From NCBI GenBank assembly GCA_044432805.1, contig JAWXUI010000003.1, positions 40,013-104,012 of the forward strand: a stretch of 64,000 nucleotides of DNA, read 5' to 3'. Under the pieces are notes generated by a model that was given only the letters and a program-made list of their open reading frames with translations, was not told where the DNA came from and did no database searches. The stretch comes from Mycoplasmatota bacterium. Lineage in GTDB: Bacteria; Bacillota_I; Bacilli_A; RF39; UBA660. The stretch's first letter is position 1; the number at the start of each line of letters is the position of its first letter. This document shows, piece after piece, positions 8,536-50,739 of the stretch. Position numbers and translations under genes: made by a program.

Positions 8536-9645
8536 TTACACATTAAATCTAAAAGTACATATATCTCCGTCTTGCATTATATATTCTTTACCTTCTAAAC
8601 GCATTCTTCCTGCTTCTTTTACTTTTAATTCTGTTCCATGTTTTAATAAATCATCATAACTCATCGTCTCTGCTTTAATAAAACCTCTTTCAAAGTCTGT
8701 ATGAATAATTCCTGCACATTGTGGAGCTTTCATTCCCTTTTTAAAGGTCCATGCGCGGCATTCTTGAACACCAGCTGTAAAGTAAGTTGATAACCCTAAC
8801 AAATCATATGTTGCATATATTAATTTATCTAATCCACTATTATTTATGCCTAAATCTTTTAAAAATTCAATTTTATCATCGTCATTTAATTCACTTAATT
8901 CAGATTCGATTTTAGCACATACCGTTATAACTGATGAATTTTCTGATGATGCATATTTTCTTACTAAATCAACGTATTCATTTCCATCAACAATTAAATC
9001 TTCTTCACTTATATTAGCCATATATATTATAGGTTTATTAGTTAAAAAATGAAATGCGCTTATTATCTTTTGATCTTCTTCATCTAAATTTAATTTTCTA
9101 ATTGGTTCATTTTTTTCTAAACATTCTTTTATTTTAGTTAATAATTCAACTTCTTTTAAAGAGTCTTTATCCTTTGATTGAGCAGCTTTTTTACCAATAC
9201 GGCCAAGCCTATTTTCAGCTATTTCTAAATCTGCTAACATAAGTTCTACATTTATAATTTCTATATCTCTTATTGGGTCAACGTTGTTTTCTACATGTAT
9301 TATATTTTTATCTTCGAAACATCTTACAACTTCTACAATTGCATCTACTTCTCTAATATGTGATAAAAATTTATTACCTAGTCCTTCACCAGATGCAGCA
9401 CCTTTAACTAATCCTGCTATATCTGTAAATTCGTAAGTTGTTGGTACAACACTTTCTGTTTGATATAAATTTTGTAAAAATTCTAATCTTTTATCTGGAA
9501 CTGTCACTACTCCAACATTTGGATCTATTGTTGCAAATGGATAATTTGCTGCTAAAATATTTTTTTTAGTAATTGCATTAAACAAAGTTGATTTACCAAC
9601 ATTTGGTAAACCTACTATTCCTGCTGTTAAACTCATTTTTTTCAC
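8536..9645 (-). CDS. ychF: Ribosome-binding ATPase YchF (Obg-family GTPase).
   Basis: It has a GLPNVGKST P-loop, a C-terminal TGS domain, and is 369 aa long. Confidence 0.95.
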   Translation of the reverse strand: MKKMSLTAGIVGLPNVGKSTLFNAITKKNILAANYPFATIDPNVGVVTVPDKRLEFLQNLYQTESVVPTTYEFTDIAGLVKGAASGEGLGNKFLSHIREVDAIVEVVRCFEDKNIIHVENNVDPIRDIEIINVELMLADLEIAENRLGRIGKKAAQSKDKDSLKEVELLTKIKECLEKNEPIRKLNLDEEDQKIISAFHFLTNKPIIYMANISEEDLIVDGNEYVDLVRKYASSENSSVITVCAKIESELSELNDDDKIEFLKDLGINNSGLDKLIYATYDLLGLSTYFTAGVQECRAWTFKKGMKAPQCAGIIHTDFERGFIKAETMSYDDLLKHGTELKVKEAGRMRLEGKEYIMQDGDICTFRFNV

Positions 9646-9741
9646 TCCTTTTATTATTCAAAAAGAAAACTAATATAAATTAGTTTTTTTATAAATAAAT
9701 TTCTTTTCTATTATTACATAAATTTTATAATAAGTAAAATA

Positions 9742-11250
9742 TTATATTGTTGGATACGTATTTATTCCTATTGGAAATCCTACTAAATACCAAGCAAGTA
9801 TAATCGCTAACCACAAAAGTATGAATAATCCAACGGTAGGTAATATTTTCTTCAGCGTTTCTAAAATGGATATTTCATCGTTATTATCAAATACATCTAA
9901 AAATGCTATCATTAATATAAAATAAGCAAATAGTGGAGTTATACTTTTTCCTATTCCATCCGCTGCTTTGAATATGAATGTCGTAAAATTAGGTGTTATA
10001 TTAGCACGCATTAGAAGAGGAACTAATATAGGGGACATTAGTTCCCACTTTGCAATACTTGACGGAATTATTAAACTTAATAAAATTGTTAAGAAAAATA
10101 ATATTATAATTAATACAAAGCCTGTAATTTCTAAAGTACTTAAAAAATCAATCAAATTAATTGCTATAACTGTATGTAAATTTGTATAATTTAATATAGT
10201 TATTAGTAATGTATAAAATAACAATAATGTTATTGGATATCCTAATTTGTCAAAATTTAAGTTTAATCCTTTATTAAATTCCTTGTTATTTTTAATATTT
10301 CCAGATATTCTTCCATGAATAAATGAAATAAGTATAGTTATTCCAAAGAGTACTATTGGAAATGATTTAATAAATGGCGACTCATCACCTAATAATGATA
10401 AAATATATGAATCATTATCTTGTAATAATATTCCGGATAAAGGCAAATTAGGTATTATCATATAAATGTATAGTACAAAACATATTGCTAATGTTATAAG
10501 TGTTACTTTATTTGCTTTCTTTGAAATTTTATATTCTTTCAATTCCTCTTTTTTATATTTTGATAATCTTGGAATTAATATTTTCTCAATAATCATAGTT
10601 CCAAAAATAGCAAGTATGATTGTTGATGCATACATAATAAAATATTCAGAAAATATATTGTAAACAAATGTTTTATCAATATCTAATGCAGCTGATAATT
10701 GTGTTAAACTTCCTAAATAACAATCGTTCGAACTTATTATTAAACTTGTTCCATAACCCATTGTTAATCCCAAAAAAGACGTTAATACACCTATAATTGG
10801 ATTTCTTCCAATGTGTTTGTATATTATTGCAAAAAATGGAATCAAAAAGATAAATGAATATTCTCCTAAAAAAGAAAATATTATAGATATTATTAACGTT
10901 ATAAATGTAATAAACTTATATTGTGTATTTTTAAATTTACTTGCTAATAATTGTGCAAGCCCACTTGCTTCAAATATACTCAATGTCGCAAAAGATATAA
11001 GTAATAATATGATTGGCTCTAACAGCGTAAAATTATTTAATAAATTATTAAATATATATTTTACTCCATCTAATGAAAAAATATTGTTTACCACGACTAA
11101 TGTTGTTTCTAGAGTGCCCGAAGAAATTATCGTTTGATTAGCCTGTAATCCAAATATTTCTCCGAAAAAACTAGCAAAAATTACTAATAAAGATAAAAAT
11201 AGCATCGCTAAAATAGGATTACATTTTTTCTTTTCCTGCTTTTTTTTCAT
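9742..11250 (-). CDS. AbgT-family (p-aminobenzoyl-glutamate / antimetabolite) transporter-like membrane protein.
   Basis: 502 aa and polytopic. The N-terminal region (…FTLLEPIILLL…FEASGLAQ…) resembles AbgT conserved segments, and the size fits. Confidence 0.45.
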   Translation of the reverse strand: MKKKQEKKKCNPILAMLFLSLLVIFASFFGEIFGLQANQTIISSGTLETTLVVVNNIFSLDGVKYIFNNLLNNFTLLEPIILLLISFATLSIFEASGLAQLLASKFKNTQYKFITFITLIISIIFSFLGEYSFIFLIPFFAIIYKHIGRNPIIGVLTSFLGLTMGYGTSLIISSNDCYLGSLTQLSAALDIDKTFVYNIFSEYFIMYASTIILAIFGTMIIEKILIPRLSKYKKEELKEYKISKKANKVTLITLAICFVLYIYMIIPNLPLSGILLQDNDSYILSLLGDESPFIKSFPIVLFGITILISFIHGRISGNIKNNKEFNKGLNLNFDKLGYPITLLLFYTLLITILNYTNLHTVIAINLIDFLSTLEITGFVLIIILFFLTILLSLIIPSSIAKWELMSPILVPLLMRANITPNFTTFIFKAADGIGKSITPLFAYFILMIAFLDVFDNNDEISILETLKKILPTVGLFILLWLAIILAWYLVGFPIGINTYPTI

Positions 11251-13989: not shown

Positions 13990-15411
13990 TTATTTTTTTG
14001 TTATTTTAAATGTTGCTTGATAAAGATTTGGTAAATCCATTTCATCTAAATCTAAAACGTAACCATATCCTTCGATTGTTTTTGCACATTCTCTAATAGC
14101 ATTAACAACTGTTTTCATATTAACACCTTCAACTATTGGGGTTTCATATGGTTTAATTTCAATTTCTTCTGTATCTCTTAAAGCATAATTATTATATACT
14201 GGTGTTACTATTGGCGCTACTTCTTCTTTAGGAGTATCATCCAATGGTTCATAAAACTTTGAATAATCAATTTCTGTTGGCACCGGAGTGACAATTGGAC
14301 TTTCCTCAGTCTTTGATAATGCGTTATCATTAGATTCTAAGAAAGGTGATGTTTGTTCTGAATTTTCAACAACTGCTTCTACCGGTTTAAATAATGGTTC
14401 TGGTTGAACATTATTTATTAATGATATTTTTTCTTCTACTTTAGGAACTATTACTTCTTCTTCTGGCATCATATTGAAAAATCTACCAGGTTTAACCGCT
14501 TCTTCTATAGTTGGTACTTGTTCAACTTTAACTTCTGGCGTTGATGATTGTAACAATGTATCCATATTAGCTAAAGGTTTTGGTTGATATATATCTTGGC
14601 TATTATTTAATAAACTTTCTATTGAAATAATATCACTTGAATTTGTTTCTTGCATTGGATTCATTGTTATATTGCTTTCTGGACTTACAATTTCTGGTAT
14701 TGTAAATTTTGCTTCATTTTCCATTGTTTTCATTTCCTCATTTTGTTCAGGTTTGATTTGATTTTCTAAACTAACTATATTTTCAGGTGTCTTTATATTT
14801 TGATTTGAACCCGACAATATTTCAGTTATTAAAACATCTGTTTTTTTAACTGTTAATCTTTCCTTAACTATTCTTTCTAAAACTGATATTTGATCACTTT
14901 CTTTTTTTAATCTCAATAAAGATCTTGCATGCCTTTCAGATATTTCTTCTTCTAAAAGTGCTTCTTGTACTTCGTCTGATAATTCTAATAGTCTTAGTTT
15001 ATTTGCAATTGTAGGCTGTTTTTTTCCTAGTTTAATTGCTAAATCTTGTTGTGTTAGATAATTCATATCTAATATTTTTTTATATGAAATAGCTTCTTCA
15101 ATTGGAGTTAAATTTTCTCTTTGGACATTTTCAATTAGCGCGACTTCACTGCTTGTTCTATCATTCATATCAGTAACTATTGCTGGAATTTTTTTTCTTC
15201 CTGCTAATACTGAAGCTTTGTATCTTCTTTCTCCAGCAATTATTTCATATTTATCTCCTAATTTTCGAACAACTATCGGTTCTATTACACCATGTTCTTT
15301 TATCGATTTTGCTAATTCATTTAAACTTTCTTCATTAAATTTTATTCTTGGTTGAAATCTATTTGGTAATATTTCTTCAACATCTAATTCAGAAAATATT
15401 CTTTCATTCAT
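13990..15411 (-). CDS. noc: Noc-like ParB-family protein with a long low-complexity insertion.
   Basis: The N-terminal ~210 aa (…PNRFQPR…GERRYKA…TIANKLRLLELSDEVQEAL…ISERHARSLL) and the last ~40 aa (VVNAIRECAKTIEGYGYVLDLDEMD…YQATFKI) align to B. subtilis Noc. About 240 aa rich in E, P, V and T lie between them. Its position between parA and rsmG matches noc. Confidence 0.8.
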   Translation of the reverse strand: MNERIFSELDVEEILPNRFQPRIKFNEESLNELAKSIKEHGVIEPIVVRKLGDKYEIIAGERRYKASVLAGRKKIPAIVTDMNDRTSSEVALIENVQRENLTPIEEAISYKKILDMNYLTQQDLAIKLGKKQPTIANKLRLLELSDEVQEALLEEEISERHARSLLRLKKESDQISVLERIVKERLTVKKTDVLITEILSGSNQNIKTPENIVSLENQIKPEQNEEMKTMENEAKFTIPEIVSPESNITMNPMQETNSSDIISIESLLNNSQDIYQPKPLANMDTLLQSSTPEVKVEQVPTIEEAVKPGRFFNMMPEEEVIVPKVEEKISLINNVQPEPLFKPVEAVVENSEQTSPFLESNDNALSKTEESPIVTPVPTEIDYSKFYEPLDDTPKEEVAPIVTPVYNNYALRDTEEIEIKPYETPIVEGVNMKTVVNAIRECAKTIEGYGYVLDLDEMDLPNLYQATFKITKK

Positions 15412-21715: not shown

Positions 21716-21963
21716 TTTTCCACACATTTCAACAACTTGTTTGATAAAAAGTTACATTTCAACAGTCTTTTCCACATTTTATTTTGTCTTTATAGATTAT
21801 ATTAAAACGCTTATTTGTTTTATCAACATATATTGTGGATAAGTTATTTACATAAAGTTTTGAAAAGTGGATAATTATTAATAACTTTTCCACAGATGGT
21901 GTTGAAAAATATATTTAAAGCTTATTTTATATCACTTACTACTGTGGAAAACAAAGTGGATAA
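21716..21963. promoter_or_regulatory. oriC upstream DnaA-box cluster, also containing the dnaA promoter region.
   Basis: Seven 9-mers match TTATCCACA with at most one mismatch. TTTTCCACA occurs at 21716 and 21768. TGTGGATAA (perfect reverse complement) occurs at 21834. AGTGGATAA occurs at 21866. TTTTCCACA occurs at 21886. TGTGGAAAA occurs at 21944. AGTGGATAA occurs at 21955. Confidence 0.8.
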
Positions 21964-23553: not shown

Positions 23554-24669
23554 ATGAAACTAAAAATTAAACAAAATATTATTATGGAACATTTGAATTA
23601 TGTAATAAAAGGAATATCGAACAAAAATTTGATACCTATATATAATTGTATAAAATTAGAATTAAAGGATGAAGGTTTATATCTATTAAGCACTGATAGT
23701 GATATTGTAATAAAAACTTTTATACCAAAAAAAGATATAGAAGAAGTAATTGAATTAGGAGAAGTTGTTATCTCTGGTAAATATATATATGAAATAATAA
23801 GAAAATTATCAGGATTTATAAATATAGAAGAAGTTGTCGATTCAAAATTATTCATATTTACAGATAATTCTAGTTTTAATCTAAACTGTAATCCAGCATC
23901 AGATTATCCAGATATCGATTTAGAAGGAACAAAAACACCAATTATCTTAAGAAAAAAAGTATTTAAAACAATTATTTCAGAAATTGCATATGCTGCATCT
24001 ACTAGAGAAGATAATATATATACTGGAATTAATTTAAAAATTAATCAAGATAATTTAGAATGTATTTCTACTGACTCGCATAGATTAGCATTAAAGAGAA
24101 TAAAATTAACTGAAACTATAGAAAATAGTATAAATATTATTATTCCTACAAAAAATTTAAATGAACTAATTAAATTATTTAAAGAAGAAGATGGAGAATT
24201 AGAACTCCACATCTTTAATAATAAAATTATTTTTAAATTTGATGACATTATTTTTAAAACAAGCTTAATTAACGGAAAATATCCAGATGTATCGAAATTA
24301 ATTCCAAATGAATTTTCTTTAACTATGACTACTAATCTAAATGATTATTATGATGCCATAGACAGAGCAAGTTTATTAACAAAAGAATCTGAAAAAAACA
24401 CTATAAAATTTGAAAGTAAAAATAATAAAGTTATTATTTCGTCAACAATACCCGAAATAGGTAGAGTAGAGGAAACTATTGAAGTAAATAAAGATAGAAA
24501 TGAAGAAATAAAAATTGCATTTAATTCAAAATATATGATAGATGCTCTTAGAGTGTTAGAAAGCGAAAACATTCAATTATTATTTAATGGAGATATAAAA
24601 CCAATAATTATAAAAACTCCTGATAATGAATCTCTAATTCAATTAATAGTGCCGATAAAAACATATTAA
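23554..24669 (+). CDS. dnaN: DNA polymerase III beta sliding clamp.
   Basis: 371 aa with a three-domain clamp, preceded by a GGAGGA RBS. Confidence 0.95.
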   Translation: MKLKIKQNIIMEHLNYVIKGISNKNLIPIYNCIKLELKDEGLYLLSTDSDIVIKTFIPKKDIEEVIELGEVVISGKYIYEIIRKLSGFINIEEVVDSKLFIFTDNSSFNLNCNPASDYPDIDLEGTKTPIILRKKVFKTIISEIAYAASTREDNIYTGINLKINQDNLECISTDSHRLALKRIKLTETIENSINIIIPTKNLNELIKLFKEEDGELELHIFNNKIIFKFDDIIFKTSLINGKYPDVSKLIPNEFSLTMTTNLNDYYDAIDRASLLTKESEKNTIKFESKNNKVIISSTIPEIGRVEETIEVNKDRNEEIKIAFNSKYMIDALRVLESENIQLLFNGDIKPIIIKTPDNESLIQLIVPIKTY

Positions 24670-24692
24670 AACTCATTTTTTGAGTTTTTTTT
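24668..24692 (+). terminator. Intrinsic terminator after dnaN.
   Basis: The stem AAACTCA / TGAGTTT, with a TTTTT loop, is followed by a T-run. Confidence 0.5.
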
Positions 24693-24764
24693 ATGCATCG
24701 ACATAATTTGACAAATTTCTACAATTAAAAAGAGTATAAGAAAAGTGATTTTGAAGGAGGATTT

Positions 24765-25220
24765 ATGAAAAATAAATATGAAATCAACAGCACTACTTGT
24801 GCAATAATACCATTAGATGTTAATACATCACAGATAATTGAACACGATGATACTTTCTTAGTAACTCAAAATTCATTAAACATAATAGATGAAAGTTGTA
24901 AATATTTTGGTAGTTCTTATGAAGGAAGAAAGGTAGGTACAAAGGCATTAACGGGTATCAATTATAAAACCCCAATTATAATTGAGGAAACAAAAAGCAT
25001 TATATTTTTTCCGACCTCATCACCAAGATTAAATTTAAGTACTTGGATTAATATTAACTATGTAGAAGAATATAAAAAAAACAAAGAATTTTCTAATATT
25101 TTATTAAAAAATGGACAGGTTATTGAACTAAATTTATCTATAGGATCACTAGAAAATCAGATATTAAGAGCAACAAGATTAGAATCGATATTAAGAAAGA
25201 GAAAAAACATTGAAAATTAA
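24765..25220 (+). CDS. comK: ComK-family competence transcription factor homolog.
   Basis: It aligns with B. subtilis ComK: YEINSTTCAIIPL vs YEVNGATIAVLP, CKYFGSSYEGRKVGT vs CRFFGSSYAGRKAGT, IFFPTSSP vs FLFPTLSS, and NGQVIELNLSIGSLENQILRATRL vs NGKTMELPISYNSFENQVYRTAWL. It has a GGAGGA RBS. Confidence 0.8.
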   Translation: MKNKYEINSTTCAIIPLDVNTSQIIEHDDTFLVTQNSLNIIDESCKYFGSSYEGRKVGTKALTGINYKTPIIIEETKSIIFFPTSSPRLNLSTWININYVEEYKKNKEFSNILLKNGQVIELNLSIGSLENQILRATRLESILRKRKNIEN

Positions 25221-25341
25221 GCAATTTATGCTTTTTTTTTATTTAAATGCCTTATTTTGTGATATAATTAAATATGTGTATAGGTATATATAATTTTTGA
25301 TTTATATAACAAAAAGACTGTTATAACGAAGAAGGTGTTTA

Positions 25342-26427
25342 ATGTATTTAAAAAACATTAAAATAAATAATTTTAGAAATTATGAAAGTACAAATCTAAA
25401 TTTGTCACCAAATATCAATATTATATATGGAAATAATGCTCAAGGAAAAACAAATTTACTGGAAAGCATTTATTTTCTTGCCATTACTAAGTCACATAGG
25501 ACAACAAATGAATCAAAATTAATTAGAACAGGAGAAGAGACATTATATTTAAAAGGTGATTTAAAAACAAATAAAGGTGATTATTTGTTAGAATTAGGTT
25601 TTGATAAAATTAAGAAAAAATTAAAAATCAATAAAAATATTATAACGAAAAAAAATGAATATATAACATATATGAAATTAGTTATCTTCGCACCAGAAGA
25701 CATGAAATTAGTAAAAGATGGACCAATCGAGCGAAGAAAATTTTTAAATGTCGCTATTAGTCAAGTAAATAGCAATTATTTAATAATTTTAAATGATTAT
25801 AATAAATTATTAAATATAAGAAATGACTTATTAAGAAAATATCAAAAAGGTGAACAAGTTGATGAATATTACTTCGAAATTATAACGCAACATATGATTA
25901 AGCGCGGAAAAAATGTAATAAAAGCAAGAAATATATTTATAGAAAAACTAAATTACCATATAAAAAAAATATATATGGATATTTTTCCTGATAATTTATT
26001 AGAGTTAGAATATAAAACTAATATAAAAGATTATGAAAATGATTTAAAAATCAACAAAAATTTAGAAATCAAAAGTGGTAATACCATTATAGGGCCGCAT
26101 AAAGATGATTTAATCTTTAGTATAAATAATGAAAATATAAAAGTTTATGGTTCACAAGGGCAGCAAAGAGTTGCTGTTTTAGCGTTAAAACTTGCACAAT
26201 TAAAAATTTATGAAAATTTAATGGATGAAAGTCCAATATTGTTATTAGATGATGTTTTTAGTGAATTAGATGATATTAAAAAAAATAATTTGTTAAAATA
26301 CTTAAAAAAAGAAACGCAAGTAATAATAACTACAACCGATTTAAAAAATATAGATAATCAAATAATCCAAAAAGCAAAAAAAATACAAATAAACAAAGGA
26401 AATATAGAAAATATAGAGGTGGAATAA
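25342..26427 (+). CDS. recF: DNA replication and repair protein RecF.
   Basis: It has a GNNAQGKTN Walker A box and an SMC-like signature near the C-terminus. Confidence 0.9.
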
Positions 26428-30803: not shown

Positions 30804-30815
30804 TAAAACAAGTAA

Positions 30816-30858
30816 GTTAAATATTTCCCGGGAAATATTTAACTTTTTTATTTTTTTA
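30816..30858 (+). terminator. Intrinsic terminator after gyrA: a 28-bp perfect palindrome followed by a T-run.
   Basis: GTTAAATATTTCCCGGGAAATATTTAAC at 30816-30843 is followed by TTTTTTATTTTTTT. Confidence 0.7.
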
Positions 30859-30989
30859 AATAATACACTAATATACTTGAATAAAAACTTAATGGAACAT
30901 GAAAATATGGTGTAAAAAGCATATAAATTTAAAAACAAGGCCAATATTTAGTGTCGTTTTTTAATTTTTAATAGAAAAAGAAATTGTTA

Positions 30990-31975
30990 ATAATAAAATC
31001 ATGTAAGGTTTCACGTGAAACTTTACAAAAGAATTAGGGAAGATTATTTTAATAAAATTATTAATCAACGACTACAGATACAAAAAACAGTGTAAAATAG
31101 ACATTAATTACCAAAAAACACACTATTTTTAATCAAAACCAATAAAACATAAATAAATTCAATATAAATCAATAAAAAATTTTACGATAAATATTTTTGA
31201 AGAATTAATCAAGGATGTTTTGACTAGAACAACAATTAATGAATATTAATACAAAAACAGTTGGTAATTGTTATAAATAACTTTGTTTCTAACTAAATTT
31301 GATAAAAAAATGAGAATGTCGACAATGAAATTATGCAAAGTTTCACGTGAAACATTCTAAAAAAATTAGATGAACTTGTTTTAATTGAAACAAAATTCAA
31401 TAAATATCGAGAAAAAACAAAGAAAAACAGATGGTAATTGTTATAATTAGTTTATATTTGACTTAAATTAACAAAAAAATAAGTTGTTTGGATACAACTT
31501 ATTTTAATTTTTGTCATTAAACGCAACGTAAAAATAATGAACTTTTAAAAACAATAATATTTATTAAAGTTTTTTTATTTTTTATAAAAAAGAACCTGCT
31601 GACAACAAAATTATGCAAAGTTTCACGTGGAACATTCTAAAAAATTAATTGAACTTATTTTGATTAAAATAAAAAATAATGAGTATTGAAACAAAAAACA
31701 ATAAAAAACAGATGATAATTGTCTTATTATTAACTTAAATTGACGAAAAAACAAAATAATAAGCAAAAAAATAAATTATTTGAATATAACGGTTTTGATT
31801 TTATTATTAAGTACGATGGAAATACAAAGAACTTTTAAATAACAATAATCTTTGGTGCCTTTTTTTAAAATTTTTGATAAAAAAATCCTGTTAAAAATAA
31901 AATTATGCAAAGTTTCGCGTAAAACGTTCAAAAAATCAATAAAAATAGACAATAATTATTATGAATTTATCTTTT
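30990..31975. repeat. Diverged tandem repeats (3-4 units of ~280-330 bp), each containing a 14-bp palindrome GTTTCACGTGAAAC or a near variant.
   Basis: Palindrome copies lie at 31008, 31340, 31620 (GTTTCACGTGGAAC) and 31913 (GTTTCGCGTAAAAC). The flanks are conserved: AAATTATGCAAAGTTTCACGTGAAACATTCTAAAAAA. Secondary conserved blocks also recur: AAAAACAGATGGTAATTGTTATAAT, GAACTTTTAAAAACAATAAT and TTGACTTAAATTAAC. There is no ORF of at least 60 aa. Confidence 0.6.
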
Positions 31976-32111
31976 TTTAACTAAAATTAATATATTTTTT
32001 GAAATAATGATTAAAAAACGCAAAAATCAAATTTAAATTAAACTTGAATTTATTCCCACTATTATATTTAAAAAGTAATACTTGCAAAAAAATGATAATT
32101 AAGGTATATTT

Positions 32112-39352: not shown

Positions 39353-42300
39353 ATGTTTGAAAAAATATTTGAAGAAGAAAAAGCAAAAAACATTATAGGT
39401 ATAACAGATGAATTAAAGTGTATATATATAAATAAACTATTTAAAAATAACAAATCAAAATTAGTTGTAACAAACACCTTGTATGAAGCTAATAAATTGT
39501 ATAAATCCATTTCAAATTATCAAAAAAATGTTTACTTATTTCCAATGGATGATTTTTTAACAAGCGAAGCATTAGCAATATCACCTGAATTACTTTATAA
39601 TAGATTAAATACTATAAAAGAAATATTAGGTAATAAACAAATAATAGTCGTTACTAATTTAATGGGATATTTAAGATATTTACCAAAAAAAGACACATTT
39701 GAAAAGTCAAAAATAAAGTTAGAATTAAATCAAACTATAGAACCGAGTACTTTAATAAAGGAATTATTTGATATAGGATATAATAAAGAAATAACTTTAA
39801 ATAAAACCGGAGACATTGCAATTCGGGGTTTTGTCGTGGATATATTTCCGTCTAATGAACAAAATCCAATTAGAATAGAATTTTTTGGAGATGAAATAAC
39901 TTCAATTAGAACATTTGACATAAATACTCAGTTAACAATAAAGGAAATTAAAGATATAATAGTCTTTCCAAATGCTGAATATATAAATAGAGAAACTCCA
40001 GAAACAAAATATAAAAATATTATTAATAAAGAAGGTAAAAATAATATAACTACGTATTTTAACGAAGTAGAAACAATATATATTAATTTACACGAAATAA
40101 AAAACTCATATAAAAATTTATTAGAAGAAATGATTGAATATAAAGAGCAAAATAATGATAAAGATTTTAATTATATGAATTTTTTCGAAGAATTGTATAT
40201 TGACGCTTATGTTTTAGAAACAAATCATAATATAACAAATGAAATATATTCAAACTACGAATCCAAAACAATCGAACCATTTACAAACAATCTAGAACTG
40301 TCAAAACAGAGATTAGTAAAATATTTAACTAAGAATAGAGTTATTATTTGTTTAAGCAACAAATATATAATCAATAATTTAATAGATAAATTTGGAGATA
40401 TAGCAATATTTACAGATGAAAATAATATAGAAGTGTCTAAAATAAATTTAATCATTAAAAATATAGAAAATGGATTCTATTTAAATAATTTAATGGTAAT
40501 AAGCGAAAATGAAATATTAAATAAAAAATGCGAAAGAAATAATTACAAATCAAATTTTAAAATAGGATCAAAAATCAAAAATATTTCAAAATTAGAAATA
40601 GGTGATTTTATAGTTCATAGTAATCATGGAATTGGAAAATATTTAGGTATAAAGAAGATAAGCAAAAATAATTTAGAAAAAGATTATATTGAATTATTAT
40701 ATAAAAATGATGATAAATTATACATACCTGTTGAAAAAATAGATACAATATTTAAATATTCATCAAAAGAAGGAATGACACCACCTCTAAATAATTTAAA
40801 TGGAGTTGAATGGCAAAAAACAAAATTAAAAACTAAAAAACGAATAGAAGAAATGACCATGGAATTACTAGATTTATACGCAAAAAGGGAAGCAGCGATA
40901 GGGTTTCAATTTTTGAAAGATGATGAAAATCAAGTTTTATTTGAAAGTCAGTTTAGATATAAAGAAACACCGGATCAAAATAGAGTTATAAATGAAATAA
41001 AAGAAGACATGCAAAAATCCAGACCAATGGATAGACTACTTTGTGGAGATGTAGGTTATGGAAAAACAGAAGTTGCATTTCGAGCAATAATGAAAGCGAT
41101 ACTCTCAAATAAACAAGCTGCTATACTGTGCCCAACAACAATATTGTCAAAACAACATTTTGATAATGCGATTGAAAGATTCAAAACATTTCCGATAAAT
41201 ATAAGTGTAATAAATCGTTTTTTAAAAACAAAGGAATTAAACAAAGAAATCGATAAAATAAAAGAAGGAAAAGTAGATTTGATAATAGGTACCCATAGAA
41301 TATTAAGTGATGATATTAAATTTAAAGATTTAGGATTATTAGTTATAGATGAAGAACAAAGATTTGGAGTTAAACACAAAGAAAAGATAAAACAATTAAA
41401 AAATAATATAGACGTCTTAACTTTGTCAGCTACTCCAATCCCAAGGACTTTACAAATGTCTATGACAGGAGTAAGAAATTTGTCATTAATTGAAACTCCG
41501 CCAGTAAATAAATTACCAATATCAACTTATGTAATGGCAGAGAATAATCAAATAATAAAAGATGCCATTAATAAGGAATTAATAAGAAATGGTCAAGTAT
41601 TTATTTTATATAATAGAATAGAAGATATTGAAAGCAAAAGACAAGAAATAAAAAATCTAGTTCCAGAAGCTAAAATAGCTATAGCTCATGGAAAACTAAC
41701 AAAAGAAAAATTAGAAGAAATAATGTTTGAATTTATAAACCATCATTATGATGTATTATTATGTACGACTATTATAGAAACAGGCATAGATATCCCAAGA
41801 GCAAATACATTAATTATATATGATGCAGATAGATTTGGTTTATCTCAACTTTATCAAATAAGAGGAAGAGTTGGAAGATCAAATAGAATTGCATACTGTT
41901 ATTTAATGTATGATAAAAGAAAAATATTATCTGAAATTGCAACGAAAAGATTGAATGTCATAAAAGATTTTACTCAATTAGGAAGTGGATTTGCTATTGC
42001 AATGCGTGATATGTCTTTAAGAGGTGCTGGTGATATTTTAGGTCAACAGCAAGCAGGGTTTATTGACTCTATTGGAACTGAATTATTTTTAAAGATGTTA
42101 AATGAAGAAATACAGAGACAAAAGGGTATAGAAATAAAAGAAGATGAAAATATATTACCATTAATAGATGTTTCAACAAGTATAAGTGATGATTATGTAA
42201 TGGAAAGCGAATTAAAAATAGAAATACATAAACTAATTAATCAAATTAACGATAAAGAATCTTTAGAATTTATAAAAGAGCAAATAGAAGATAGATTCGG

Positions 42301-44869: not shown

Positions 44870-45391
44870 ATGGGAACAGGAATAGTAAGAAGAGTAGATG
44901 AACTAGGTAGAATCGTGATACCAAAAGAAATTAGAAAATCATTTAGAATAAAAGATGGTGAAACAGTAGAAATAAGTATAAATGACGAAGGAATTATATT
45001 AAAGAAACATTCTTTTTTAAACAAAATAAATGACATAGCATCTTATTTAGTGTGCTCTATATATAATAATGTAAAACAAACAATAATAATAACGGACTTA
45101 AATAAAGTAATAGCATCTTCAAAAAATGTTAAAAATGATTATTTAAATAAAGAAATAAGTAATGAATTATTTAATATTATAAATAATAGAAAAGATATCT
45201 TAAATAATTATAATGAAAAAATAAAAATAATTAATGAAAAAATACAAATCAACTATTATATTAGACCATTAATAGTAAATGGGGATGTTGTTGGATCGAT
45301 TATATTATTTGATGATAATTTTATAAAAGAAGATACAATAAAAATTGTAACAATAGCGAATGACTTTTTAGAAAAATATCTTGAAATATAA
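44870..45391 (+). CDS. spoVT: SpoVT/AbrB-family transcriptional regulator with a C-terminal GAF-like domain (SpoVT-like).
   Basis: It has the N-terminal swapped-hairpin motif MGTGIVRRVDELGRIVIPKEIR and is 173 aa long (SpoVT is 178 aa). Its position next to mfd matches Bacillus, though a ppaC-plus-unknown-gene insert separates them here. Confidence 0.75.
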   Translation: MGTGIVRRVDELGRIVIPKEIRKSFRIKDGETVEISINDEGIILKKHSFLNKINDIASYLVCSIYNNVKQTIIITDLNKVIASSKNVKNDYLNKEISNELFNIINNRKDILNNYNEKIKIINEKIQINYYIRPLIVNGDVVGSIILFDDNFIKEDTIKIVTIANDFLEKYLEI

Positions 45392-50277: not shown

Positions 50278-50739
50278 ATGAATAAAGTTATGTTAATAGG
50301 TAGGATAACTACAAAACCAGAATTAAGATATACAAGTTCTAATTTACCGTTTACAAGATTTTCTGTAGCGATTAATAGAACATTTTCAAATCAACAAGGC
50401 CAAAGAGAAACTGACTTCATCAATGTAGTTGTTTGGAGAAAACAAGCAGAAAATGTTTGTAATTTCTTAAACAAAGGAAGTCAAGTAGCTATAGAAGGTC
50501 GATTACAAAGCGGAAGTTATGACGACAAAGATGGTAAAAAAGTTTATACATTAGATGTTCAAGCTGATAATGTTCAATTTTTGGAATCTAAATCACAAAG
50601 TCAAACAAGAGATAGTAACCCAAGTCCATATGATTATCAAAATAATCAAGGATATCAAAGTAATAATGTAAATGTGGATAATGACCCATTTGCTGATTTC
50701 GGTGATAGTGTTGCAATTGATGACAACTTCCTAGATTAA
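50278..50739 (+). CDS. ssb: Single-stranded DNA-binding protein.
   Basis: It has an OB fold and a C-terminal acidic tail ending DDNF. Confidence 0.95.

Follow-up and report, generated by a model that had tools for sequence, protein, structure and literature searches.

Core-only ComK between dnaN and recF in a Mycoplasmatota bacterium: a lineage-typical gene with a phased promoter box array of candidate Spo0A type

Why a gene for a ComK-family protein, comK, should lie between dnaN and recF beside a replication origin, and whether it is regulated there together with the replication genes, is the question raised by a stretch of DNA from a Mycoplasmatota bacterium (contig JAWXUI010000003.1 of assembly GCA_044432805.1, forward-strand positions 40,013 to 104,012), which at its full length of 64,000 nucleotides (nt) is referred to below as the window. 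A sequence-only reading had described comK as a competence regulator inserted into the replication operon, suggesting that competence might be coupled to replication or gene dosage. The analysis described here points instead to a lineage-typical, core-only comK that forms a transcription unit of its own, may be subject to Spo0A-type control and would govern a competence or K-state-like regulon, and to this reading as a whole a probability of about 0.5 is given.

The assignment to the ComK family, and with it the profile comparison against PF06338 that had been called for, is borne out. The intact 151-aa product (ATG start) matches this Pfam model with E=1.2e-41 and a score of 142.4 bits, where 22.3 is the cut-off, and the match, which runs from protein residue 3 to 147 and from model position 2 to 151 of 152, covers the model almost completely; among the NCBIfam models for ComK none was matched. 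In BLASTP the protein is 39% identical over 147 residues (E=4e-36) to COMK_BACSU, the 192-aa master regulator of competence and the K-state in Bacillus subtilis, with window residues 5-146 aligned to residues 12-157; the B. subtilis sequence used for the comparison had been verified as exactly this database entry. The two proteins had been called alignable over three blocks, and alignable they are, although in one contiguous alignment rather than in three blocks only. The length difference likewise stands, but a special compactness does not, as the Pfam domain likewise spans 152 positions and it is the B. subtilis tail that is lacking. Both proteins have the full domain and the same conserved blocks, and both appear to be small stand-alone DNA-binding regulators encoded by single genes; in the window protein the first 11 residues and residues 158-192 of B. 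subtilis ComK have no counterpart.

Conservation within the family is strong, with 18 invariant columns in the ComK alignment, including SC.YFGSSY.GR, IIFFPT and NQ, and with the K-P-I of the YK.PI block invariant, and the AlphaFold2 model of the window protein has a predicted local distance difference test (pLDDT) score of 93.4. An identical protein is on public record (MFI3307000.1, 'MAG: competence protein ComK [Mycoplasmatota bacterium]'), where the competence role, as in the window, would be an annotation by homology. Several independent assemblies hold the same protein in the same gene context, so that an assembly artefact is discounted. The ribosome-binding site that had been noticed for comK is there as well (Table 1). 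A sequence search of the PDB returned no solved ComK. When the model (24765-25217) was compared with the PDB by Foldseek, the top matches were all LytTR DNA-binding domains, among them those of Bacillus cereus (3d6w), Streptococcus pneumoniae ComE (4cbv) and Staphylococcus aureus AgrA (3bs1), with E values of 0.016-0.4, which are not significant, and TM-scores, normalised to target length, of at most 0.59; this hints, though weakly, at a LytTR-like ComK core.

The location of the gene had also been given correctly, as Pfam identifies its neighbours by beta-clamp domains (dnaN) and by SMC_N (recF), and recF is followed by gyrB and gyrA. A homolog search yielded at least 1270 relatives, and the best 120 of these 1270 are 147-156 aa long and all carry PF06338; 970 ComK-like clusters, a mix of ~150-aa and ~190-aa forms, were found among 1.84 billion cluster representatives. 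The closest named relatives are long-form ComKs of Bacillaceae (40-45% identity), and the sampled short forms come from uncultured sources throughout. Synteny was examined in four species-representative genomes, five Pfam-labelled contigs and eighty metagenome contigs, and all of these sources support the full order dnaA-dnaN-comK-recF-gyrB-gyrA. Among testable loci selected through ComK, tblastn found dnaN 5' of comK at 81 of 87 and recF 3' of it at 79 of 84. Sampling based on RecF was added since the other loci had all been found through ComK, and the order dnaN-comK-recF was present in each of the four long contigs picked from the RecF homolog list.

These comparisons also bear on the age of the arrangement. 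Identity in ComK varies together with identity in DnaN (r=0.51), and the GC content of comK (0.252) is like that of the neighbouring genes; a recent horizontal insertion of comK was ruled out by composition and by co-divergence with DnaN. Because of the synteny, the co-divergence and the matching GC, comK can be regarded as an old occupant of the dnaN-recF gap, passed on vertically. Judged in this way, it is an orthologous, vertically inherited gene of a large uncultured clade with ~25% GC, labelled Mycoplasmatota or Bacilli and represented by metagenomes only. A gene 'inserted' in this one genome thus gives way to a rule of the clade, and the dnaN-recF comparison with relatives, from which the sequence-only reading had itself expected a verdict, undercuts a special insertion by revealing a lineage-typical layout. 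Our literature search brought up no paper that ties ComK to RF39 or Tenericutes or reports the order dnaN-comK-recF, and no description of a promoter box array upstream of comK; each component has precedent, while the arrangement and the promoter array were not found described.

A small gene in the dnaN-recF gap is familiar from Bacillus, where the order is dnaA-dnaN-yaaA-recF-remB-gyrB and where, in B. subtilis, yaaA (rlbA) lies between dnaN and recF and remB between recF and gyrB. The occupants are unrelated, however, yaaA being S4-like and the window gene encoding a ComK domain, and the window has no remB, as the recF stop and the gyrB start share position 26427 with no remB-like gene between them. 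The comK gene of B. subtilis is not adjacent to dnaN.

That the slot itself is dispensable is indicated by five loci (L011, L024, L037, L043, L073), which form one monophyletic ComK branch and carry comK elsewhere, after a LemA gene and a gene for a DUF2207-like membrane protein and before a gene for a small Lys/Ala-rich basic protein and gatCAB. Since this sub-lineage keeps ComK together with the promoter boxes described below, comK function does not need the dnaN-recF slot. Unrelated lineage-specific open reading frames (ORFs) of 86-230 aa are found at the dnaN-comK junction in L016, L030, L034, L038, L045 and L067, and another at the comK-recF junction in L064; examples are a 203-aa membrane-anchored protein rich in Ser, Thr and Asn and a 230-aa protein. 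Because unrelated ORFs have been inserted there, these junctions can be read as permissive transcription-unit boundaries. Two of the loci that closely match the window, L001 (CAYJEO010000004.1) and L002 (CAYYCR010000042.1), are from records titled 'uncultured Muribaculaceae', and their contigs have a Bacilli-type origin region (rnpA-yidC-jag, then dnaA-dnaN-comK-recF-gyrBA), so that this label looks wrong.

The boundaries of the unit are marked by several signals. The terminator-like hairpin that had been reported after dnaN is present in the window, and a hairpin followed by a T run occurs at this position in 60 of 65 dereplicated loci, compared with 2 of 102 coding controls. A weak hairpin of the same kind follows comK, where 41 of the 65 loci have one (2/102 in controls), stronger in relatives than in the window. 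Downstream of it, recF has a promoter of its own, as an extended -10 element, T(R)TGnTATAAT, is kept in most syntenic comK-recF spacers. Membership in the replication operon, which would call for the lack of both a terminator and a separate promoter, is contradicted by the hairpins on both sides and by the separate promoters of comK and recF. In the window and most relatives comK would thus usually be a single-gene unit separating dnaA-dnaN from recF-gyrBA. No evidence was found for co-regulation of comK with the replication genes, and the origin-proximal site is best read as inherited gene order.

Beside the recF promoter, the comK-recF spacers of loci L001-L090 contain a second conserved element, a GTGTATAGGAGTAC-like motif that begins ~8 nt after the recF -10, at or near the 5' end of the transcript. 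In some lineages it lies inside a longer hairpin with an AGGAG resembling a Shine-Dalgarno sequence, and the five loci without recF downstream of comK do not have it; it could be an operator or a stabiliser of the 5' end of the mRNA. In Rfam no family was found in the comK flanks, this motif included, and window-wide only a T-box, the signal recognition particle (SRP) RNA and an S10 leader were recovered.

The promoter of comK was described by the sequence-only reading as lacking any obvious sigma-A signal, and this description does not hold, as a conserved TATAAG -10 stands behind a conserved array of three boxes. Promoter calls were based on conservation across loci and not on a sigma-70 scan, in which promoter-like sites were not enriched (50 found, 44.6 +/- 6.4 expected); for this reason a single sigma-70 match in this AT-rich DNA, TCGACA-16-TACAAT, was given no weight on its own. 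The three window boxes repeat in direct orientation every 10 bp, each within one mismatch of TTCGACA, and TATAAG lies 11, 21 and 31 nt downstream of them. The -10 of relatives is often preceded by TG. Three -35-like hexamers occur 5' of the comK -10 at non-canonical spacing, and none at the canonical -35 spacing. Up to three boxes are found per comK promoter, covering roughly -24 to -50.

Expectation-maximisation (EM) on 70 dereplicated loci gave the consensus TTCGACAAAA TTCGACAAAT TTCGACAAAT with an exact 10-bp period. When both strands of 1.08 Mb were searched with it, 83 triple-array matches above 18 bits were obtained, 71 of them within 220 nt 5' of comK and seven more in a tandem amplification of the comK promoter in L036; the window array scores 33.2 bits and the next-best window site 14.8. 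Exact TTCGACA is ~160-fold enriched in the 150 nt upstream of comK (4.6/kb compared with 0.028/kb elsewhere), the distance from box to box is 10 bp in 33 cases and 20 bp in 13, and at least two boxes are present in 42 of 71 loci as against ~1% of control windows. The array is also found upstream of comK in the five non-syntenic loci and, because it is present where comK is away from dnaN, it goes with comK rather than with the replication cluster. Of the four RecF-selected loci, from which the matrix had not been built, two reached 27.7 and 26.9 bits. In many relatives further boxes, in either orientation, occur in the 5' untranslated region (UTR) of comK. In L036, 7.5 copies of an 88-bp unit (9183-9846) stand between dnaN and comK, each copy with a triple TTCGACA-type array, which adds ~21 boxes; it could be a real promoter amplification or an assembly artefact.

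By contrast with these boxes, the operators known from B. subtilis are missing. Its comK promoter carries autoregulatory K-boxes, whereas for window comK none was found: K-box pairs (AAAA-N5-TTTT with 8- and 18-bp spacers) are absent from the window at up to one mismatch, and the best match in the comK upstream region has four mismatches. Across 71 comK upstream regions there was no positionally conserved K-box, such matches as occur being explained by homopolymer runs. Autoregulation of the B. subtilis type, through K-boxes with 8-, 18- or 31-bp spacers at the gene's own promoter, accordingly finds no counterpart here.

The identity of the boxes is suggested by their reverse complement. That of the TTCGACA repeat is TGTCGAA, which is the core of the Spo0A box (0A box), common to the Spo0A proteins of Bacillus and Clostridioides, with G2, C4 and G5 contacted by the protein (PMC3485338). 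It has been shown that Spo0A~P dimers bind tandem boxes 3 bp apart, where they can activate or repress, and that they also bind replication origins (PMC2731898); seven-bp boxes with 3-bp gaps give the 10-bp period of the comK array. Tandem TGTCGAA-type boxes with this spacer are known from the Spo0A promoters of abrB, phage phi29/Nf A2c and spoIIG (PMC2731898; PMC3485338), from which the comK array differs in having three boxes rather than two and in that the box nearest to the -10 sits in the spacer region. A more direct parallel is offered by B. subtilis, where Spo0A~P binds five sites around PcomK (A1-A3, R1-R2), opening and then closing the competence window (PMC3297582). In both cases several 0A-type boxes lie at the comK promoter, and the 5' UTR boxes of some relatives recall the repressing sites of the B. 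subtilis gate; the B. subtilis sites are, however, dispersed, degenerate (up to 2/7 mismatches) and intermingled with sites for ComK and Rok, whereas here a compact, phased triple array stands without K-boxes and its binding is a prediction.

The architecture of the promoter fits Spo0A-dependent control as well, given a -35-like hexamer 21 nt from the comK -10, the lack of a canonical -35 and the boxes in the 5' UTR. At spoIIG the corresponding hexamer lies 22 nt from the -10. As to whether a Spo0A protein is to be expected in such organisms, the uncultured Bacilli orders RF39, ML615J-28 and RFN20, placed among the Mycoplasmatales, are predicted to have kept many genes for sporulation, and spo0A is mentioned for the RFN20 families CAG-631 and CAG-449 (PMC10868615); the window genome may belong to one of these orders. 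The window itself contains an intact SpoVT gene (44870-45391, + strand), with an AbrB-like N-terminal domain and SpoVT_C at E=1.5e-19, upstream of the metG T-box leader, and a weak BofA match follows recR in L008; Mycoplasmatota-labelled organisms thus appear to keep sporulation regulators. Taken together, Spo0A control of the comK promoter is given roughly even odds.

The second peculiarity of the clade lies in the protein. Window ComK stops at the end of the folded core, with five residues remaining after the point that aligns to COMK_BACSU residue 157, and so has no counterpart of the ~35 tail residues 158-192 that go with a canonical activator of the B. subtilis type. The tail is absent from each of the 87 clade proteins, which are 148-163 aa long. 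In B. subtilis, residues 158-192 form a disordered region, without which cooperativity between boxes and in vivo activity are lost while dimers bind a single box as before (bioRxiv 10.64898/2026.03.17.710445), and an earlier study is quoted as finding the tail necessary for activation (Susanna 2006, as cited in PMC3128618). Another natural C-terminal truncation is ComK2 of B. cereus (BC5250), which lowers comG expression (PMC3128618). Like window ComK, it is tail-less with a conserved core; its truncation amounts to 22 residues and a full-length ComK1 is present beside it, whereas window ComK is ~35 residues short and the window showed no long-form paralog. As all 87 clade proteins are tail-less, clade ComK must work without the tail mechanism or act otherwise, and it could be, for example, a repressor or a single-box activator.

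The mechanism that best accommodates these observations would run as follows. After the dnaN terminator, comK would be transcribed from its own promoter as a one-gene unit ending at the comK terminator, and recF-gyrB-gyrA would then be read from the extended -10. Spo0A~P would switch comK at the transition to stationary phase or sporulation, more probably by activation than by repression, which would amount to a less elaborate counterpart of the gate that Spo0A forms directly at PcomK in B. subtilis, and clade ComK would bind DNA as a regulator of a competence or K-state-like regulon elsewhere in the genome. The binding of Spo0A, the direction in which it would regulate and the existence of a competence regulon are all predictions here, made from 64 kb of this genome and, in the long contigs of relatives, from up to 10 kb on either side. 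Late competence genes (comG, comE, comF, dprA, ssbB and the like) do not occur in that window, where only one full-length ssb is present, a stand-alone gene (50278-50739, + strand, 153 aa) whose product has an acidic C-terminal tip and which has long flanking spacers, with no rpsF-ssb-rpsR operon in the window. Genes for the MecA/ClpCP and ComS system, which controls ComK post-translationally in the canonical case, are likewise missing from these 64 kb.

Several points weigh against this account. The motif came first and its likeness to the 0A box was noticed afterwards, which makes the match post hoc; each window box is one mismatch off the consensus, boxes within one mismatch are missing from 12 of 71 loci, and the RecF-selected locus L100 has no convincing array. 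In another RecF-selected locus, L098, the dnaN-comK spacer has only 29 nt (2889-2917) with neither terminator nor promoter nor boxes, and comK is probably co-transcribed with dnaN. Boxes at -24 to -50 could repress instead of activate, and a tail-less protein, if B. cereus ComK2 is a guide, may not activate at all. The lack of K-boxes in the window also counts on this side. Finally, the sporulation literature on RF39, ML615J-28 and RFN20 would apply to the window genome by likeness.

Against the account preferred here stands the proposal that comK is embedded in the origin-proximal replication operon and that competence is coupled to replication or to gene dosage at the origin, with stalled forks raising the copy number of comK. 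The start of comK lies ~2.8 kb from the DnaA-box cluster of oriC, comK has stayed in place across a deep clade, and L098 shows an arrangement of the kind required, with a 29-nt spacer, no terminator and probable co-transcription. A precedent could be seen in S. pneumoniae, where competence is reportedly under origin-dosage control through comCDE, as Slager et al. are said to have described in 2014. There, too, a competence regulator is near oriC, but comCDE is a LytTR response regulator system with a dosage effect reportedly demonstrated by experiment, whereas window comK is of another family and is known here from its sequence. Persistence beside oriC is weak evidence of selection for position, as gene order there is highly conserved in general; terminator-like hairpins on both sides, a separately conserved and regulated comK promoter, the recF promoter and the lineage-specific genes that mark a unit boundary between dnaN and comK in several relatives all speak for insulation, and a monophyletic sub-lineage keeps ComK and its boxes at the unrelated DUF2207-like/gatCAB locus. 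Because of this insulation and of the relocated sub-lineage, position is not essential for a comK of the window type, and the coupling is judged unlikely. The opposite extreme, a decaying or functionless remnant hitch-hiking in a conserved neighbourhood, could appeal to the loss of a tail that B. subtilis needs for activation, to the lack of late competence genes in the window and to genomes that appear reduced. It is extremely improbable, as the ORFs are intact in 87 of 87 loci within a narrow range of lengths, 18 columns are invariant and many more nearly so, promoter architecture and ribosome-binding site are conserved, and the predicted structure is a confident one.

Two further proposals concern the factor that binds the array. 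The boxes could be operators of ComK itself, which would then have changed its specificity from AAAA-N5-TTTT to TTCGACA, regulate its own gene and act at oriC, at recF or at both as a repurposed regulator of replication or repair. This would explain why the array accompanies comK at every location, why no canonical K-box is found in the window or conserved upstream of comK, why tandem boxes recur in the rnpA-dnaA spacer and why comK and recF are so tightly adjacent (79/84 loci); LytTR domains, to which the weak Foldseek matches point, bind direct repeats, and ComK of B. subtilis does autoregulate (PMC3297582). The box consensus is, however, the defined site of another factor down to the 7+3 spacing, and ComK dimers bind dyad A/T boxes and not direct repeats with a conserved CGAC core. 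With the core 39% identical to B. subtilis ComK and its conserved blocks intact, and with LytTR fold matches that are not significant (E of 0.016 or more), such a change of specificity seems quite improbable. LytTR sites, moreover, are spaced ~21 bp apart.

Alternatively, the array might consist of phased low-affinity DnaA boxes, through which DnaA-ATP would control comK and link ComK to initiation status. The box TTTTCGACA is one position off the local DnaA box TTTTCCACA, comK adjoins dnaA-dnaN, and the middle box of one relative (L087) is a true TTTTCCACA; by analogy, the array resembles E. coli oriC, where DnaA-ATP fills weak sites in phased arrays of the same orientation. At the discriminating position of the array, C is nevertheless the rarest base (3%, compared with 61-72% for G), whereas the oriC boxes of the genome are uniformly CCACA, and on this basis DnaA boxes were ruled out as the main identity of the repeats. 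The array also persists where comK is far from dnaA, and its exact 10-bp period matches 7+3 tandem Spo0A boxes, so that control by DnaA is very improbable. A composite of these ideas can be envisaged as well, in which a tail-less ComK forms part of an origin-centred decision circuit, has the TTCGACA array as the switch on which either Spo0A~P or ComK acts, is kept near dnaA-dnaN-recF for dose or timing relative to initiation, and perhaps acts on the oriC-spacer boxes and the recF-gyrBA promoter. If true it would link replication status, entry into sporulation and DNA uptake or repair in gut Bacilli with reduced genomes, but it is decidedly improbable.

What is at stake differs between these possibilities. 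Work on ComK has been almost confined to Bacillus and close relatives, and here a very large uncultured clade, known from metagenomes only, including several human gut ones, is represented by more than 1,200 ComK homologs, uniformly tail-less and single, at a fixed address and with a simple conserved promoter. If the boxes are indeed bound by Spo0A, the direct link from Spo0A to ComK would be ancient and not a peculiarity of B. subtilis, organisms labelled Mycoplasmatota would have kept a transition-state and sporulation-type regulatory core, and the clade protein, a natural 'ComK-delta-IDR' (lacking the intrinsically disordered region), would be a test of the model in which the tail is essential for DNA-mediated cooperativity. 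The phased TTCGACA array is at the same time a specific, searchable signature for other members of the regulon. If the arrangement is merely inherited gene order, the finding is an ordinary one.

Table 1. Features of the origin-proximal comK region, in window coordinates.
Feature	Position	Strand	Description and basis
oriC DnaA-box cluster, 5' of dnaA	21717-21966	both	TTTTCCACA / TTATCCACA; read from sequence
dnaN, DNA polymerase III beta clamp	23554-24669	+	Pfam DNA_pol3_beta domains 1, 2 and 3
Terminator-like hairpin after dnaN	24668-24692	+	AAAACTCA-TTTTT-TGAGTTTT, then T run; RNAfold free energy (dG) -7.0 kcal/mol
Three direct-repeat boxes	24697-24723	+	ATCGACA 24697-24703, TTTGACA 24707-24713, TTCTACA 24717-24723; EM motif
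-10-like hexamer of comK	24735-24740	+	TATAAG; position conserved in upstream alignment, putative function
Shine-Dalgarno sequence of comK	24755-24760	+	AGGAGG; read from sequence
comK	24765-25220	+	151-aa core-only ComK-family protein; Pfam PF06338, identity to B. subtilis ComK, AlphaFold2 model
Weak terminator-like hairpin after comK	25219-25240	+	AAGCA-ATTTA-TGCTT, then T run; RNAfold dG -4.9 kcal/mol
recF promoter, extended -10	25258-25268	+	TGTG-A-TATAAT; conserved T(R)TGnTATAAT
Conserved motif 3' of recF -10	25276-25288	+	GTGTATAGGTATA here, GTGTATAGGAGTAC in the clade consensus; comK-recF spacer alignment
recF	25342-26427	+	Pfam SMC_N and ORF table

The origin itself is at ~21.7-22.0 kb, because GC skew changes sign there (at ~22 kb, between the 20-22 kb and 22-24 kb bins) and DnaA boxes cluster; boxes of the form TTWTCCACA are concentrated at 21.7-22.0 kb and again at 23.4-23.5 kb. 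Within the oriC region two TTCAACA boxes lie 30 bp apart (21728-21734 and 21758-21764), and boxes of the TTCAACA/TTCGACA type are found in the rnpA-dnaA spacers of L002, L009, L013, L056, L058, L062, L067 and L088. For tandem two-box matches this oriC spacer is the second most frequent location after the comK promoter. These boxes fit the Spo0A type, but the fit is confounded by their likeness to DnaA boxes.

Two features of the wider window may concern chromosome segregation. Between gyrA and the SRP RNA (Rfam RF00169, 32111-32196) there is a 1.3-kb gap free of ORFs (30804-32110), in which a unit of ~290 bp is repeated four times, each with a palindrome (A/G)GTTTCACGTGAAAC(A/T), located at ~31012, ~31340 and ~31620, with a degenerate copy at ~31912. 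The palindrome resembles the parS site of B. subtilis (TGTTNCACGTGAAACA), and sites for the loading of ParB may be clustered in this gap beside the origin. A second ParB-family gene (13990-15411, - strand) encodes ParB_N and HTH_ParB domains, has a Noc-like position and carries a C-terminal extension of ~270 residues rich in Pro, Glu and Val.

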